A stretch of 35,624 nucleotides of DNA from a virus, in the IMG/VR virus record IMGVR_UViG_3300008970_000004. The stretch is one strand, 5' to 3'. Shown piece after piece: positions 1 to 35,624 of this stretch. How positions within the stretch are numbered: the stretch's first letter is position 1; every line of letters starts with the position of its first letter. The notes beneath the pieces are model-generated. The model was given only the letters and a program-made list of their open reading frames with translations, did no database searches and had not been told where the DNA came from. Both the position numbers and the translations under genes were made by a program.

Positions 1-99
1 TGTTGTTTTTAAAGATTACGTTGCAATTTATTATCGATTAACCGGACAACCAATATCATTTGATGATATTAGAAGTTCGGATGAAAAACTCAATGGTGC
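1..99. repeat. Terminal direct repeat, copy 1 (identical to 35526..35624); circular-assembly overlap
   Basis: Compared base by base: tgttgtttttaaagattacg...caatggtgc is identical at both ends. It lies inside an open reading frame that continues seamlessly across the junction. Confidence 0.95.
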
Positions 100-19404: not shown

Positions 19405-19519
19405 ATTGTGCTCCTTTGATTAACTTTTTGAACCTCCGACTTTTTTCGATTCAACAAAGTTTTTGAATTTCAGATTTTTCCAAATTTTCAGTGGCGAGTG
19501 AAGTTATCTTGCTGAGGGG

Positions 19520-20221
19520 CTAACACGAGTCCTCATTTTTCAATTCAATAGGGGGGGTATACGTATCAAACCATTTGTTAATGTATGATTTCCAATCTTC
19601 TTTATACCGTTTACGATAATCATCCACTGATTCTAAACGGTTTAAGCACTCTTCCTTGGTTGTTTCTATAAGGATTGCTGCATCAACCTGTAGTTCATCA
19701 ATGATCCTATCCCTATCGAATGTGTTTGGATAACCGCCAATAATCCACGCTGTCTTCCACTGGCCATAACGAGTCTTGATATGATCTAGCAATAAATCCC
19801 TTACACTAAAGAGATTTCGTTTGACTGCTGGTACTTCTTGATATGTTGGCATGAGTGTGATTGCTTCCTGGAGTTTGTCCAAATCCACAACGATATCACT
19901 ATAGCCTTTGTTTTCTTTTACATATGATGTCTTACCGCTTAAAGGTGGACCATACACAAGGATTACTTCTTTGTTGGTTATGAATCGCCCATGCTCTTCA
20001 TTGTGGCATTGGTGACATATAACCTCTACATTATCCTTATTGAATGTCTTGCTGTAATCATTGTAATCGTGCTCTTTAAGATGTTGTATGTGATGCACTT
20101 CTAACTGTGATGTATCAGTAAACACCTTATTGCATCGACTGCATATACCGCCATTCTCAATTATGACAGTCTCTCTGAATGCTCTCCAGGATCTGCTTGT
20201 ATAAAATGTATTCCCTGGCAT
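19520..20221 (-). CDS. HNH endonuclease fused to a P-loop NTPase/kinase-like domain
   Basis: N-terminus: CSRCNK...EVHHIQHLKEH...NVEVICHQCHNEEH (HNH with CxxC pairs). C-terminus: VILVYGPPLSGKTSYV (Walker A) and a kinase-like remainder. Lies next to the terminase genes. Confidence 0.8.
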   Translation of the reverse strand: MPGNTFYTSRSWRAFRETVIIENGGICSRCNKVFTDTSQLEVHHIQHLKEHDYNDYSKTFNKDNVEVICHQCHNEEHGRFITNKEVILVYGPPLSGKTSYVKENKGYSDIVVDLDKLQEAITLMPTYQEVPAVKRNLFSVRDLLLDHIKTRYGQWKTAWIIGGYPNTFDRDRIIDELQVDAAILIETTKEECLNRLESVDDYRKRYKEDWKSYINKWFDTYTPPIELKNEDSC

Positions 20222-20709
20222 TAGAAGTCATTATCCTCTTTGAATTTTTGTATTTCCTTCTCAAGTTTCAGCTTCTTTTCCTTAAGAATATGATCTAATG
20301 GTTGGTCCATGAATGGTTCCTTGAGATTTCTACTGTAGTTTTTAAGAAGCTTCCATATAGCTGATTCAGAAGGTGGATACTTCTTGTGAACTCTTTTTTT
20401 CATGATTTTCATCTCATGATTTTCATCTATGACATCGCTCTCTGTAATTTCAGCATCTATCTCCTGATATCCAAAAGCAAGCTTCTCAAGAGTTTGAACT
20501 AAACGTGGAACTAGTAACTGTCCTTTATATTTCCTAGCTTCAAAAATAGTAGATGATAAGATGCCGTATTCTCTCTTGTACTTAATCCATGAGTTTTTGG
20601 AGATCTGCAGACGTGTATAAATATCCTTTTCGGTAGCACCCTCGTAAATTATCCAGTTGCGTATTTCATCAAGTCGAATTCGCACTTGATTCCATTTAGA
20701 GTCTGCCAT
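20221..20709 (-). CDS. HTH DNA-binding protein, first gene after the ORF-free gap (packaging-associated or late regulator)
   Basis: 162 aa. HTH-like GATEKDIYTRLQISKNSWIKYKREYG. RBS AAGGTGA. The stop overlaps the HNH gene start. Confidence 0.6.
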   Translation of the reverse strand: MADSKWNQVRIRLDEIRNWIIYEGATEKDIYTRLQISKNSWIKYKREYGILSSTIFEARKYKGQLLVPRLVQTLEKLAFGYQEIDAEITESDVIDENHEMKIMKKRVHKKYPPSESAIWKLLKNYSRNLKEPFMDQPLDHILKEKKLKLEKEIQKFKEDNDF

Positions 20710-20818
20710 TCTATCACCTTTATTGCTGTTTCATAAGTTCACACATTTCATATGTTTAAACGGTTACCTAAAATTTGTGAAAAAAAATAAATAACCGTCA
20801 TTTTTGCTCTTTATTATT

Positions 20819-20927
20819 GATGATACCTATTTTTTAGGACCTAGACTAATCAATATTTGGGGGAAATATGGATACAGTACCAGAGCAAGGAAACTGTAGC
20901 ACTAAGTCCTAAAAAATAGGTATCATC
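20819..20927 (-). ncRNA. Candidate structured RNA: 22-bp perfect closing stem enclosing two hairpins. The strand is inferred, not shown.
   Basis: gatgatacctattttttaggac (20819..20840) is the exact reverse complement of 20906..20927. Inner hairpins are tacagt/actgta (20873..20878 with 20893..20898, 14-nt loop) and atattt/aaatat (20853..20858 with 20864..20869, 5-nt G5/C5 loop). The region has no ORF of 60 aa or more. Confidence 0.45.
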
Positions 20928-21013
20928 TTACGTCTTTAGGCTACTTAATAAAAATATCTTAGTCAATACCAAAACTTCATGTTGCAAAAAAGGGAATCAT
21001 CCACGTAGTGAGG

Positions 21014-21043
21014 TATAAAAAAAGATAAGCTGTGCTCATCTTT
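21014..21043 (-). terminator. Rho-independent terminator after the PcfJ-like gene
   Basis: The minus strand reads AAAGATGAGC-ACA-GCTTATCTTT (10-bp stem with one G-U pair) followed by TTTTTAT. It starts 11 nt after the TAA at 21055..21057. Confidence 0.7.
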
Positions 21044-21054
21044 AGTTTGTAAAA

Positions 21055-22608
21055 TTATGCTATTGCCATCATGGTTTTATCACTGATCTGATCTGTGTGA
21101 CTGTTGATGTATTCAGTGAAGTATTCAGCAACTTTAGCAGGATCTTGATTGTTTGTACTCCTGCACTGTGTGACTTTGCCATTTCTTATTTCGACTGTAT
21201 AGAATGGTTTGTCGATGTATTTCTTTTTCCTAACGAATAGAACAGCCGTTTCTTTTCTAGCGATTCGATCTACATATTGAAACACACAATGGTTTAATGT
21301 TTTCCCTTCAACGTATAAATCATCTGCGGATTTTGGTGCAATCAATATGTAGTCGTCACCAATTTCCAGCTGTAAATGTTTATTGGACTGCCACACAAGT
21401 TCAAGGAATCTTTTCTTTTCTTCCTCTCGCTTTTTTCTTTCTTCTTCCGCCTTTTCTTTGCGTTTTTGTTCATTAATTCCCTCCAAGTGGAGTTCCCTTG
21501 CTTCTTCTCTATAACGAGGATCTCTTTCATCATCCGGAAGTAACTTCTGCCAATTCATCAACATAACTTTGTATTCTGTTGTTGACCACTTGAACTCCAT
21601 AATGAGTAAAATTTCTTTAAACTCTTCAACCAGATCTTCAGGAAATACATATTTGTCTCTTGATAAATCTAATCCAAGTTTATTGATGTATCCTATGTAA
21701 TACCTGTAGACACTTAGAAATGTTGTTCCAAATACTGTTTGCGTGGATTTTCTACCCTTGATGTACTGAATAAATTTGGTTTTACTAATTTGCGGATGTT
21801 CAGAAAGGAATGGAATCCAAAACTCTTCATAGCCATAATCTACAAACATGAATTCAGGATTTTCAAATCCTTTGGCATGCAACTTAACGATTCTATTATA
21901 ATGATATAGCCCTTTTCCTCGTAAACGAAAGAAATCCTGATGCTGCTTAAATAGTTTTAGATCGATATTATCGTAGCTTGACATCAATTCCGTTGCAAGT
22001 TTTGTATAACCTGACTTGATTAGCATTTCTATTTGCCATAGATGTTCACGTTCAAATCTGTTATTAAACAACGTGTACAAGTTCAAATACTCAAGCTTTG
22101 TAAAATCAAGGTATTTAAACTCTGGGATTTCATAAAGGAATTTCAAATCAATTTCAGATGGTTTGTACTCTTGAGTATAGAACACACCATCGGGATTGCT
22201 CGTTTGACCGTAACCAACTCTTGAATTTGACCAAAATGTTACGCCTGTCGATTTCCATGGCGCTGAATTGTATACATGGCATCCACCATCAATTTTATCG
22301 AATATTGCTAAAACCCGCCAAGCTCTCACGATGTAATATTCTCTGCTATTGAGGATAACGGTTTTTAATTCAAAACGTATATTTCTATCCATACTAGGAA
22401 GCTCTTGCATTAAACGATTAACTTCGCTCATCAGTTCGTCATCGTATTCTTTTCCAAACTTATCCGTATTGAATAAATAGTGCCAGTCTTTTTTGTGTGC
22501 ATAATATAAGTTTCTGTTTTCGCGGTAGAAGTTTTCAAGTCTATCCAGTTGATTTATAGTTAACTGTTTAAAGATACTACGATCAATGTTCAGCAAAGAG
22601 CCCATCAT
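21055..22608 (-). CDS. PcfJ-like protein
   Basis: 517 aa. The C-terminal EGKTLNHCVFQYVDRIARKETAVLFVRKK...PFYTVEIRNGKVTQCRSTNN matches my memory of the PcfJ-like domain. It lies beside a PcfK-like gene. Confidence 0.6.
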   Translation of the reverse strand: MMGSLLNIDRSIFKQLTINQLDRLENFYRENRNLYYAHKKDWHYLFNTDKFGKEYDDELMSEVNRLMQELPSMDRNIRFELKTVILNSREYYIVRAWRVLAIFDKIDGGCHVYNSAPWKSTGVTFWSNSRVGYGQTSNPDGVFYTQEYKPSEIDLKFLYEIPEFKYLDFTKLEYLNLYTLFNNRFEREHLWQIEMLIKSGYTKLATELMSSYDNIDLKLFKQHQDFFRLRGKGLYHYNRIVKLHAKGFENPEFMFVDYGYEEFWIPFLSEHPQISKTKFIQYIKGRKSTQTVFGTTFLSVYRYYIGYINKLGLDLSRDKYVFPEDLVEEFKEILLIMEFKWSTTEYKVMLMNWQKLLPDDERDPRYREEARELHLEGINEQKRKEKAEEERKKREEEKKRFLELVWQSNKHLQLEIGDDYILIAPKSADDLYVEGKTLNHCVFQYVDRIARKETAVLFVRKKKYIDKPFYTVEIRNGKVTQCRSTNNQDPAKVAEYFTEYINSHTDQISDKTMMAIA

Positions 22609-27613: not shown

Positions 27614-27626
27614 CCTTTGCTCTGGA
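27614..27626 (-). repeat. Early-gene leader motif, copy A (TCCAGAGCAAAGG, one extra A)
   Basis: The minus strand reads TAA AAACTATCCAGAGCAAAGGAGACTCAAAAA ATG. It is intergenic and fused to the SD of 27081..27602. Confidence 0.7.
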
Positions 27627-30896: not shown

Positions 30897-31035
30897 GTGG
30901 TTTCTCCCTTGCTCTGGATACTTTCTTTTCATGGCCACACCAGAAACAGTGTAGCTTGTTTTTGTTTTCAATCATGATCTTTAAATCGTAGTGTCCACAT
31001 TTAGGACACTTTTCAGCTTCTTGATTATCAATCAT
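30862..31035 (-). CDS. Small zinc-ribbon protein (57 aa), absent from the ORF track
   Basis: Translated by hand: MIDNQEAEKCPKCGHYDLKIMIENKNKLHCFWCGHEKKVSRAREKPHGDKNINKSKR. It has two CxxC pairs, RBS AAGGTG 7 nt upstream of the ATG, and starts 12 nt after the upstream stop. Confidence 0.6.
   Translation of the reverse strand: MIDNQEAEKCPKCGHYDLKIMIENKNKLHCFWCGHEKKVSRAREKPHGDKNINKSKR
30907..30918 (-). repeat. Early-gene leader motif, copy B (TCCAGAGCAAGG)
   Basis: The minus strand reads GTATCCAGAGCAAGGGAGAAACCAC ATG. It matches copy D at 21 of 22 positions. Confidence 0.75.
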
Positions 31036-32445: not shown

Positions 32446-32957
32446 TTTGTCACCTTGTCTGAAAAGACATTTTCATGTATAATTACTTTGGTTTCTTCCT
32501 TGCTCTGGAATGAAACACTGAACGCATGCGCCTCCCCAGGTTGTGCGTTCTTTTCTTTTTCACTAAAGTATTCATTAATGTATCCAAGTCTTAATGCAAA
32601 GTCTTTAACACGTCTAATGAACCAATCATTCATATCCCGGTAGCCAGCTCTTCTAAAGTTTGCTTTACACATTAATTTCTTTAGTTTCCTTGGAAGTCTT
32701 ACATGAATATGAAAATGAGGATAATCTTCAGGAATATTAAATCTTGTGTTTGGATTCTTTAACAGCTGCAGTTCTTTACGCTCATAAATCTCTAATCGAT
32801 GCATCCCCAACTGCTCTTCAATTGCTATCATGGTTTCCGGTGTTGGCAGTACTTCATAGTTTTCAATAAGAGATAGAATCATAGGACTTACCTGTAGTTC
32901 GTTTGCCAGATCTGTTTGTCTGAAACCTTTTTTCTTTCTAACGTTCCTTAGTTTCAT
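32442..32957 (-). CDS. XRE-family HTH protein with a C-terminal extension
   Basis: 171 aa. HTH: KKGFRQTDLANELQVSPMILSLIENYEVLPT. Confidence 0.65.
   Translation of the reverse strand: MKLRNVRKKKGFRQTDLANELQVSPMILSLIENYEVLPTPETMIAIEEQLGMHRLEIYERKELQLLKNPNTRFNIPEDYPHFHIHVRLPRKLKKLMCKANFRRAGYRDMNDWFIRRVKDFALRLGYINEYFSEKEKNAQPGEAHAFSVSFQSKEETKVIIHENVFSDKVTK
32498..32509 (-). repeat. Early-gene leader motif, copy D (TCCAGAGCAAGG)
   Basis: The minus strand reads CATTCCAGAGCAAGGAAGAAACCAAAG. It lies inside the 3' end of 32442..32957, about 50 nt upstream of the 32445 start. Confidence 0.7.
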
Positions 32958-33304: not shown

Positions 33305-33316
33305 CCTTGCTCTGGA
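33305..33316 (-). repeat. Early-gene leader motif, copy C (TCCAGAGCAAGG)
   Basis: The minus strand reads TAG CAAATCCAGAGCAAGGAGAAAAACG ATG. It is intergenic and fused to the SD. Confidence 0.75.
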
Positions 33317-33918: not shown

Positions 33919-34230
33919 ATGGATATCTACGATAGAATCAGCCAACTATTGATAACTAAAGGGAAAACAAGAAAAGAAATGTGTCAGGATTTAAAAATAC
34001 CTTATAGCACATTGAATTCACTATATCAGCGTAGAACACAAAGGATCAATTTTGACATGATTCAAGATATTGCGAAATATTTGAACAGAACAGTAGAGTA
34101 TTTGGCTTTAGGTATTGAGCATCAAATGTCACCAAAGGATGAGCTTGTAATAATATTCGAATCATTGAACGATTCAGATAAAAAACAACTTATAGAGTTT
34201 GCTAAATACTTAAAAAACAGACAAGGATGA
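33919..34230 (+). CDS. CI-like repressor (short XRE-family HTH, no peptidase domain)
   Basis: 103 aa from the ATG at 33919 (the track uses TTG at 33913). RBS GAGGTGA 6 nt upstream. HTH: KTRKEMCQDLKIPYSTLNSLYQ. It is divergent from cro-like and lies upstream of int. Confidence 0.7.
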   Translation: MDIYDRISQLLITKGKTRKEMCQDLKIPYSTLNSLYQRRTQRINFDMIQDIAKYLNRTVEYLALGIEHQMSPKDELVIIFESLNDSDKKQLIEFAKYLKNRQG

Positions 34231-34236
34231 TTGATT

Positions 34237-35624
34237 ATGAATAAAGCGGTTATATACGCTCGATACTCTTCTGATAAGCAACGTGAAGAATCAATTGAAG
34301 GCCAATTGATGATTTGTCACGACTTCGCTAAAAAAAATAATCTTCAAGTTATTAAAGAGTATATAGATAGAGCAAAAACAGGAACTCGTACAAATAGATC
34401 TGAATTTCAGAGAATGATAATGGATAGTAATACCCAATCTTTTCAATATGTAATTCTATATAAAACTGATAGGTTTGCTAGAAACGAGCATGATTCTATC
34501 GTGAACGAACATTACCTTTTGACCAATGGAGTTCAGTTGATGTATGCGACTCAACCTTTTTTGAATAATAAAGGTGGTAGAATCATTAAAGCAATTTATC
34601 GCGTACAAGATGAAGAATACTCGATAAATCTATCAGAGAGAACAAAGCTTGGTTTAGCTATGAATGTTGAAAATGGGAATGCAATATCTGGTCAATGTCC
34701 TATTGGATATAAAATAGAAAACAAAAAAATGGTCATCGATGCTGAAAAAGCAGATATCCCAAAGTTTATTTTTAATCTTTATGCTGGAGGTATAAAGGCT
34801 ACAGACATCAACATTATGCTGCAAGAAAAGGGCTATAATCCATTTAATATAAATTCAATTAGTAGGATGATCCGAAACAAGAAATATATTGGAACATTAA
34901 CATTTCAGGGCAAGGAGCATCTTAACTATCATCCTCAACTAATAGATAACGAGACATTTGAAAAAGCAAACTCGATGCTTAATAACAAAAGAGCACGTCA
35001 TGGTGGAAGGTCTATAGAGAAGTATTTATTAAGTGGATATTTGTACGATCAAAACGGAAAACGATTTGTCGGTAATAGTGGTAATGGTGAACATGGGAAA
35101 AAATATAGGTATTATTCATTAGGTAAACGCTATATAAAAAAAGACCACATAGAAAAACTTGTGATCGAAACTATAATAAGTACTTTATCTAAATCATCTA
35201 CTGAGTTTGCTCAAGAAATCCATAATAAATTGCTTAATAGTTCTGGAGAATCGAATGCAGATATAGCAAGAAAGAAACTAAATGGAATAAATAAAGATAT
35301 AACCAACTTAATTAATGCTATTAAAACTGGAATAATAAATGATTCAGTGAAAGACGAATTAGATCGTTTGGAAAAATTGAAGTTGCATTTGCAATCAGAA
35401 CTATTAAAACCAGATGTTAGTCAGTTTAGTGTCTCCCAGTTAAGAAAAATGGTTGAACAAATGAAAAAAAAACACCTCACCGAAAGTGATAAGGCATCTT
35501 TAATATCTTCGATGGTTGATAAAATTGTTGTTTTTAAAGATTACGTTGCAATTTATTATCGATTAACCGGACAACCAATATCATTTGATGATATTAGAAG
35601 TTCGGATGAAAAACTCAATGGTGC
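34237..35624 (+). CDS. int: Large serine recombinase (integrase); runs off the window end and continues at 1..181
   Basis: The ATG at 34237 gives MNKAVIYARYSSDKQREESIEGQ... (resolvase-type catalytic Ser motif). Followed by DRFARN and a recombinase-domain ...CPIGYK.... The frame is open to the last base. It is not in the ORF track because no stop falls inside the window. Confidence 0.9.
   Translation, partial: MNKAVIYARYSSDKQREESIEGQLMICHDFAKKNNLQVIKEYIDRAKTGTRTNRSEFQRMIMDSNTQSFQYVILYKTDRFARNEHDSIVNEHYLLTNGVQLMYATQPFLNNKGGRIIKAIYRVQDEEYSINLSERTKLGLAMNVENGNAISGQCPIGYKIENKKMVIDAEKADIPKFIFNLYAGGIKATDINIMLQEKGYNPFNINSISRMIRNKKYIGTLTFQGKEHLNYHPQLIDNETFEKANSMLNNKRARHGGRSIEKYLLSGYLYDQNGKRFVGNSGNGEHGKKYRYYSLGKRYIKKDHIEKLVIETIISTLSKSSTEFAQEIHNKLLNSSGESNADIARKKLNGINKDITNLINAIKTGIINDSVKDELDRLEKLKLHLQSELLKPDVSQFSVSQLRKMVEQMKKKHLTESDKASLISSMVDKIVVFKDYVAIYYRLTGQPISFDDIRSSDEKLNG
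35526..35624. repeat. Terminal direct repeat, copy 2 (identical to 1..99)
   Basis: See copy 1. Confidence 0.95.

Follow-up and report, generated by a model that had tools for sequence, protein, structure and literature searches.

In the phage genome studied here, the IMG/VR virus record IMGVR_UViG_3300008970_000004 (35,624 nt, analysed over its whole length and called the window below), a 109-nt element at 20819..20927 is, judging from its fold, its covariation and its fit to a covariance model (CM), a structured RNA of the same sense as the genes, that is, of the minus strand. The element lies in a gap between the early and the late genes, and one of its loops is complementary to a motif fused to the Shine-Dalgarno (SD) sequences of several early genes. 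This complementarity co-occurs with the element across related genomes, and a conserved promoter-like signal stands immediately ahead of it. Structure, strand, conservation and complementarity are solid. The best explanation found is an antisense riboregulator, in which the loop of an RNA from the late operon would pair with tagged ribosome-binding sites (RBSs) of early genes, and we rate the chance that this is correct as about even. Expression and processing of the RNA, repression rather than activation, and the timing of the effect are what we infer on that reading.

The element consists of a long closing stem around two hairpins. A preliminary description of the window, made from its sequence alone, had recognized a 22-bp exact inverted repeat (20819-20840 and 20906-20927) enclosing two hairpins; the sequence bears this out, and the repeat reaches 26 nt (20819-20844 and 20902-20927), with the 22 perfect pairs followed by CUAG/UUAG and its one U·G pair on the minus-strand RNA. 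Hairpin 1 (20873..20898, minus strand), the proposed seed, is formed by TACAGT (20873-20878), a 14-nt loop (20879-20892) and ACTGTA (20893-20898). On the minus-strand RNA this loop reads 5'-UUCCUUGCUCUGGU-3'. Hairpin 2 (20853..20869, minus strand) is formed by ATATTT, GGGGG (20859-20863) and AAATAT and exposes a CCCCC loop on the RNA. The structure first proposed also stood up to comparison with dinucleotide shuffles, the minus-strand RNA folding at -47.9 kcal/mol (z = -9.4) and the plus strand at -42.7 kcal/mol (z = -6.7). With its 26 bp, kept by covariation, the stem has the length of an RNase III substrate (~20 bp or more of near-perfect double-stranded RNA), and a perfect duplex of 22-26 bp is a textbook substrate of this enzyme. 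The stem does not have the form of an intrinsic terminator; CAAUAAUAAAG comes directly behind it, and the first U-run is reached only after ~35 nt.

Relatives were located via homologues of protein X, the product of the first late gene of the window, and of the IstB-like protein. The same early/late junction was found in ~20 uncultured metagenomic loci (designated L plus a number), whereas none of the GenBank phages matched the window in megablast and blastn searches. Three versions of the element could be distinguished. Type A, found in the window and eight other variants, contains two inner hairpins. In type A2 (L264/L265), the sequence of the stem is largely different, the hairpin-1 loop is kept exactly and the C5 loop is carried on a rewritten stem (AUAUUU/AAAUAU replaced by AAAA/UUUU); its late module differs as well, with no X, a 77-aa HNH protein and a small terminase of the Terminase_4 family. 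Type B has another 22-bp stem, with one to three internal mismatches, and a single inner hairpin with the loop ...UCCUUUGC, hairpin 2 being absent. Despite their largely different stem sequences, the A2 and B elements occupy the same place as A.

An alignment of 10 A/A2 variants was used to examine covariation. Of the 26 stem pairs, 14 vary and 7 are altered on both sides, and 97.3% of the cells in the proposed structure are paired (98.8% for the stem alone). None of 500 shuffles reached the observed values, and the paired fraction dropped to 34-43% in slid controls. As for departures from Watson-Crick pairing in the stem, read on the gene-sense strand, eight positions show G·U and one shows C·A. 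Such a one-sided bias points to RNA and not to a DNA site, as a DNA palindrome would have no such bias. Each variant folded more stably as sense than as antisense RNA, and the CM built from types A and A2 scored the window element at 139 bits on the minus strand versus 52 bits on the plus strand, and the A/A2 elements at 105-147 bits sense versus 44-58 bits antisense. Together with the G·U asymmetry, these scores disfavour the plus-strand transcript that had been entertained as an alternative. The CM detected exactly one element per genome and recognized type B also, at 22-29 bits. The hairpin-1 loop is invariant across the 10 variants save for one U/C position, the C5 loop is invariant, and the interior of the element, which is not palindromic, is more conserved than the stem arms. 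Loops that are fixed in sequence on stems that are fixed only in pairing are the pattern predicted by a recognition or seed function.

A candidate sigma-70-type promoter, P1 (20938..20966), lies just upstream of the element on the minus strand, to which the preliminary description had already assigned the RNA. It comprises a -35 hexamer TTGACT (20961-20966), a 17-nt spacer and a -10 hexamer TAGCCT (20938-20943), and its predicted start is near 20931, ~4 nt ahead of the stem. In all 12 aligned homologues ATTGAC is invariant, as are the T, the A and the final T of the -10 hexamer, and the spacer is always 17 nt long with a varying sequence. Invariant -35 and -10 bases around a variable spacer of fixed length are the signature of a real sigma-70-type promoter, here with a weak -10; P1 was not called by the consensus scanner because its -10 matches at just three of six positions. 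This conserved candidate would give the element a promoter of its own, as expected of a trans-encoded small RNA (sRNA).

The complementarity of the loop to early RBSs was examined in the window. CCAGAGCAAGG is found on the plus strand at 20880, within the hairpin-1 loop, and the RNA loop is its antisense. As had been noted before, the same motif recurs on the minus strand, exactly at 30907, 32498 and 33305 and with one extra A (CCAGAGCAAAGG) at 27615, three of these four copies being at RBSs. Matches with at most one mismatch numbered 5 versus 0.33 expected, and 0 of 100 shuffles reached 5. The three RBS copies, all on the minus strand, are 8-12 nt ahead of their start codons: that at 33305..33315 serves a 113-aa gene (ATG 33295; -25.0 kcal/mol), that at 30907..30917 a 96-aa gene (ATG 30896; -25.5 kcal/mol) and that at 27615..27625, which reads CCAGAGCAAAGGAGACU, a 173-aa gene (ATG 27602). 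The remaining copy (32498..32508, minus strand) is not at an RBS but inside the 3' end of an HTH_3 gene. Perfect complementarity extends over 11 nt at 30907, as originally stated, but over 12 nt at 33305 and 13 nt at 32498, two figures that had apparently been swapped. When the loop was scored against the 30 nt upstream of 53 starts of minus-strand open reading frames (ORFs), just 3 paired at -24 to -25.5 kcal/mol, the next best RBS reaching -18.7 kcal/mol; the four window sites (-24.3 to -25.5 kcal/mol) all exceeded the best shuffled-loop control (-22.4 kcal/mol). Opening costs were 3.3 kcal/mol for the loop seed and 2.7-5.4 kcal/mol for the targets, and the predicted targets held with accessibility included, at a net interaction of about -16 to -19 kcal/mol. 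The accessible seed of a trans-encoded base-pairing sRNA is thus predicted for types A and A2, but not for type B.

Complementarity to hairpin 2 was seen at a separate site. The RBS of a 288-aa gene (1179-1200, ATG 1178), AAAAAAGGGGAAAUAUAUG, contains GGGGAAAUAU, a 10-nt complement of hairpin 2 (AUAUUUCCCC) that is not statistically significant alone; this RBS is a possible target of the C5 loop.

Across the relatives, strong RBS targets (-24 to -29 kcal/mol, with 11-16 nt of complementarity between loop and RBS motif) were present in six of six A/A2 genomes examined, whereas five of six type B genomes gave background only with A loops (-17 to -20 kcal/mol), L013 being the exception at -22 to -24.6 kcal/mol. 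Orthologous places that carry the motif are the 113-aa gene, the tail of the HTH_3 gene, the 173/155-aa gene and the PcfK RBS of other members. At orthologous RBSs the motif persists even where the flanks have diverged beyond detection by megablast, as for the 33305 copy in L027; the 32498 copy is conserved in L264 and L266, in a region that is also coding. In the target variants CCAGAGCGAGG, CCAGAGUGAGG and CCAGAGCGAAGG, pairing is kept through G·U pairs or a single bulge, and with the loops of L005, L012 and L266, which have CUCC instead of UUCC, a 27615-type site pairs over 9 + 7 nt at -26.9 kcal/mol. Between types, the number of A residues in the target tracks the number of U residues in the loop, with GCAAGGA/UCCUUGC in type A and GCAAAGGA/UCCUUUGC in type B. 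Type B phages have an extended RBS tag of their own, (C/U)CCGAGCAAAGGAA, at the PcfK gene and several early genes, with sites in L019 (1501, 1635, 2441, 6579 and 11803), L007 (4340 and 8125) and also L257, and GCAAAGGA is seven-fold over-represented in type B (12 observed versus 1.7 expected).

In the mechanism that we propose, the RNA would be made on the minus strand from a sigma-70-type promoter directly behind the terminator of the early/replication operon, a position that would make the element the first product of the late unit (X, HNH, terminase and morphogenesis genes). The 26-bp basal stem would carry one or two hairpins, the single-stranded loops of which would be the functional parts. 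As an extended anti-SD seed, the hairpin-1 loop (UCCUUGCUCUGG) would pair with UCCAGAGC(A/G)AGGA fused to the SDs of three to five early or middle genes; the pairing would occlude their RBSs and may provoke cleavage of the duplex, and translation of the targets would fall as the element accumulates. The long perfect duplex probably stabilizes the RNA and, as a substrate of RNase III, may free the element from the late mRNA. The timing, with early genes shut off at the onset of late expression, and the direction of the effect are pure inference. A fuller version of the same proposal is advanced tentatively: the leader of the late operon may be a multi-target riboregulator, excised by RNase III, that silences an early regulon with a common RBS tag (UCCAGAGCAAGGA) through both the anti-SD loop and the C5 loop, with tag and loop co-evolving as lock and key in types A and B.

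Several observations weigh against a riboregulator of this kind. A terminator scan found no canonical terminator between the element and gene X, and the next hairpin after the element has a 17-nt loop with just UUU-AA behind it, which is a poor U-tract; the RNA may therefore be the 5' leader of the late mRNA and not a discrete sRNA. The copy at 32498 (copy C) and the PcfK-RBS copies overlap coding sequence, and the few substitutions seen in targets are all transitions, which are the commonest changes anyway. In type B, the loop matches the RBS motif only over the 8 nt of GCAAAGGA, with 4 nt more at some sites, and its duplexes were not better than shuffled-loop controls. The CCGAG part of the type B tag is conserved without complementarity to the type B loop and must therefore be under a constraint that is independent of pairing. 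Finally, the element adjoins the end of the PcfJ module, so the co-occurrence of loop and targets could partly reflect common descent.

Taken overall, the interpretation given in the preliminary description is partly supported. The RBS-occluding trans sRNA that it envisaged is favoured by the seed, the promoter-like signal, the invariant loops and the A/A2 targets, but a canonical terminator is missing and complementarity in type B is at background. The relatives, to which it had looked for compensatory stem changes and for co-variation of loop and targets, likewise gave a divided answer, with compensatory changes and preserved loop-target pairing in types A and A2, but in type B with an 8-nt seed that did not rise above shuffles.

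It is possible, although we consider it rather doubtful, that the element acts purely in cis as the 5' leader of the late mRNA, protecting a transcript of ~20 kb from 5' exonuclease and/or serving as an RNase III site, or alternatively as a put-like antitermination RNA, the match of the loop being secondary or incidental. The predicted start just ~4 nt before the stem would suit such a leader, and a 5'-flush 26-bp hairpin would alone stabilize a Firmicute transcript. The duplex of 22-26 bp is likewise suited to RNase III, for which the early mRNAs of T7 or SP82 contain processing sites. No terminator separates the element from the late genes, which it heads even when the first of them differs (X in type A, the 77-aa HNH protein in type A2), and the lack of significant targets in type B suggests that the feature common to the family may be the stem and not the antisense loop. 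However, a stabilizer or RNase III site would leave unexplained why 14 loop nucleotides and the C5 loop are invariant over drifting stems, as well as the matches of 11-16 nt to three to five RBSs in every A/A2 genome examined, and pairing of the loop in cis with the RBS of gene X was rejected at -7.0 kcal/mol. The leader and RNase III roles are compatible with a trans role of the antisense loop.

Recognition of the loops by a phage or host protein (e.g. the helix-turn-helix (HTH) protein X, PcfJ/K or a translational regulator), or a plus-strand decoy displaying GCAAGGA and GGGGG, appears improbable. Invariant loops are what a protein-binding RNA would show, and the CC(A)GAG of the RBS motif, conserved in type B without complementarity to the loop, suggests another reader; yet no candidate RNA-binding protein was identified, and X has no match in Pfam, PHROG or among PDB folds. 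For the decoy, antisense transcription could come from plus-strand hexamers resembling a -10 (TAAAAT, TAGAAT and TAATAT) that lie downstream of the element, but at 35% GC such hexamers are insignificant, no conserved -35 accompanies them, and the minus strand is favoured both by the one-sided G·U pairs (8 to 1) and by the CM scores. A DNA-level element (a cruciform, as the preliminary description had considered, a cos/pac or terminase site, an origin or an operator palindrome) is very improbable, for although an inverted repeat of this length and perfection, placed in the largest intergenic region and just before the packaging genes, would suit it and Watson-Crick compensatory changes alone also fit a DNA palindrome, the imperfections of the stem are G·T on one strand only (eight positions versus one), without the symmetry of a cos/pac site, the arms are less conserved than the interior, 19405-19519 offers a better candidate for cos, and the ends of the relatives' contigs are assembly overlaps, not termini.

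The cos candidate lies in the gap between the HNH and small terminase genes, which is the usual place of cos in HNH-associated cos phages. In this gap (19405-19519), a GC-rich block, GTTAGCCCC(y)CAGCAAG(r)TAACTT..CTCGC, is common to types A and B in a genome that is otherwise AT-rich, and it is a plausible cos site of an HNH-associated terminase system. A contig end of L006, located 37 nt before gene X, was also considered as a genome terminus and rejected, as it is accounted for by circular-assembly overlaps (37260-127 = 37163-30 = 37133).

The window has a GC content of 35% and carries all its genes on the minus strand. In transcriptional order, the genes for an IstB/DnaC-like protein, an HTH protein, a PcfK-like protein and a PcfJ-like protein (21055-22608) are followed by the gap (20710-21054) and then by X (162 aa, 20221-20709), an HNH endonuclease, a 108-aa probable small terminase, the large terminase and morphogenesis genes. 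With the PcfJ-like gene on one side and X, HNH and terminase on the other, the gap is where the early/replication module meets the late one. The gap had been described as the longest ORF-free stretch of the genome; its 345 bp stand, but it is tied with 33946-34290, and 800 bp at the right end (34825-35624) are without a listed ORF. These two further stretches, which lack ORFs of at least 50 aa, lie at the presumed start of the early region. The gap itself contains just small ORFs of 20-31 aa, none of which is supported by the conservation pattern.

The architecture of the junction is fixed among the relatives, in the order terminator, small inverted repeat, TTGACw-17-TAnnnT, long-stem element, second hairpin and first late gene. 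A terminator behind the PcfJ-like gene, noted in the preliminary description, was found by the terminator scan at 21021..21043 (minus strand) as the intrinsic terminator of the upstream PcfK/PcfJ operon, and every homologue has an equivalent GC hairpin and T-run at this position. Between it and P1 is the small inverted repeat CAC-GTA-GTG (21002..21010, no strand assigned), kept in relatives, with equivalents in L019, L025 and L026, as TCAC-TAC-GTGA or, in type B, as ATTAC-GTA-GTAAT. The 3-nt core, which is asymmetric, is turned one way in some relatives and the other way in others; as DNA the site thus appears symmetric, and P1 may have its operator here.

The second conserved hairpin (20760..20799, minus strand) is formed by ACGGUUAUUUA and UAGGUAACCGU around a U-rich 17-nt loop and is followed by UUUAAAC and a conserved block up to X. 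Its GG, AG and GA variants all pair with UU on the sense strand, a one-sided wobble as in the main stem, and there is a corresponding hairpin in type A2. Among the non-coding blocks of the junction, conservation is highest at 20735-20799, CGGTTATTTATTTTTTTT..TAACCGTTTAAnCnTAT..GTnTGAACTT, a part of which (TAACC-GTTT-AACATAT) is kept in type A2 even though the first late gene differs. Possible roles of this hairpin or block are those of a weak terminator, an attenuator, an element of a late promoter or a site for a regulator.

Protein X of the window matched no family in Pfam or PHROG. Its AlphaFold model had a predicted local distance difference test score (pLDDT) of 64 and no significant PDB fold match, and a function was not assigned by this route. 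The equivalents in L007, L013 and L017 comprise 173 aa and are extended at the N terminus by MNLCNKIKGD...; in the window, a stop codon closes the equivalent frame (GTGAACTTATGA, 20710-20745), which leaves MADSKW as the start of X. The leader of X and the region upstream of copy A of the motif share a 13-nt inverted match, which was judged to be due to chance.

The first 99 nt of the window (1-99) are identical to its last 99 nt (35526-35624). Identical ends of this kind are a k-mer overlap, which identifies the contig as circularly assembled, and the true length is 35,525 bp. Scans of IMG/VR with RBS motifs of 14-15 nt were flooded by chance matches, the only true relatives among them being L027 and L257. 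One of the related loci was binned with a metagenome-assembled genome of the Erysipelotrichaceae, and the host of the phage is probably a Firmicute. In one 38-kb contig (IMGVR_UViG_3300017698_000165), the junction cassette is present twice (L019 and L021) with different genes upstream, one of the two copies having an N and a deletion within the hairpin; this contig may be a chimeric or concatemeric assembly.

If the proposed riboregulator is correct, it would represent a simple and portable means of translational timing in phage development, in which tagged early genes are turned off from the head of the late operon. It would also be an RNA counterpart of T4 RegA/RegB and would extend the C-rich-loop sRNAs of Firmicutes to a phage. 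Most phage sRNAs known so far either have host genes as their targets or are antisense in cis to just one phage gene. With ~20 loci, three versions, covariation, and predicted seed and targets, the family is well defined, and it is therefore directly testable in a heterologous Firmicute although the phages are uncultured.

Comparison with known RNAs was carried out over the whole window. No Rfam family matched at its gathering score, nor meaningfully at E ≤ 10, at which the nine sub-threshold matches were to long hairpins of a generic kind (HIV pol-1 stem loop, miRNA precursors) and did not include C4; ARAGORN made no meaningful call. Packaging RNA of the phi29 type, tRNA/tmRNA, Y RNA, 6S RNA and other curated families were rejected, as none was matched by Rfam or ARAGORN. 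Whatever its function, the element is, by these sequence comparisons, a new structured-RNA family absent from Rfam. It belongs to none of the c4 RNAs, the C-rich-loop sRNAs of Firmicutes and the T4 RegA/RegB systems, c4 being its closest mechanistic precedent and the C-rich-loop sRNAs a second one.

The c4 RNA is processed from the transcript on which its targets also lie. Like the element, it is a small structured phage RNA that exposes, in loops, short sequences complementary to RBS sites of the phage's own mRNA. The loop sequences of the c4 antisense RNA of P1/P7 (RF01695) pair around an RBS in an mRNA of the phage itself, which blocks translation (PMC12197685), a finding for which the passage on c4 in PMC2864571 cites Citron & Schuster 1990. 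There is no sequence or structure match between the two, and the c4 CM was not matched. The targets of c4 control one gene pair (icd/ant), whereas here three to five separate genes would be targeted by an RNA that heads the late operon, and these targets are located 6.7-12.4 kb upstream, in an operon that ends with a terminator, not downstream in the same operon. The host of c4 phages is enterobacterial, in contrast to the probable Firmicute host here.

In the C-rich-loop sRNAs of Firmicutes, such as the RNAIII hairpins of S. aureus and RsaE/RoxS, UCCC or CCCC loops pair with the SDs of several mRNAs independently of Hfq, and RNase III often cuts the resulting duplexes. The CCCCC loop, the UCCUU-containing loop and the multiple RBS targets of the element resemble this arrangement. 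These sRNAs are chromosomal, have their own terminators, target host genes and show no homology to the element, which is phage-encoded, has a 26-bp closing stem and no evident terminator, and is predicted to target the phage's own genes. The RNase III hairpins of phages (T7 R sites, SP82 early RNA and the lambda N leader) share long double-stranded stems in leaders or between cistrons, for which the 22-26 bp found here suffice, but they lack conserved antisense loops. In the T4 RegA/RegB systems, numerous early mRNAs have their translation ended by a single phage factor that acts on their RBS regions (PMC3014915). The logic of shut-off proposed here is the same; RegA and RegB are proteins (a repressor and a GGAG-specific endonuclease, respectively), whereas the proposed effector of the present phages would be a base-pairing RNA.

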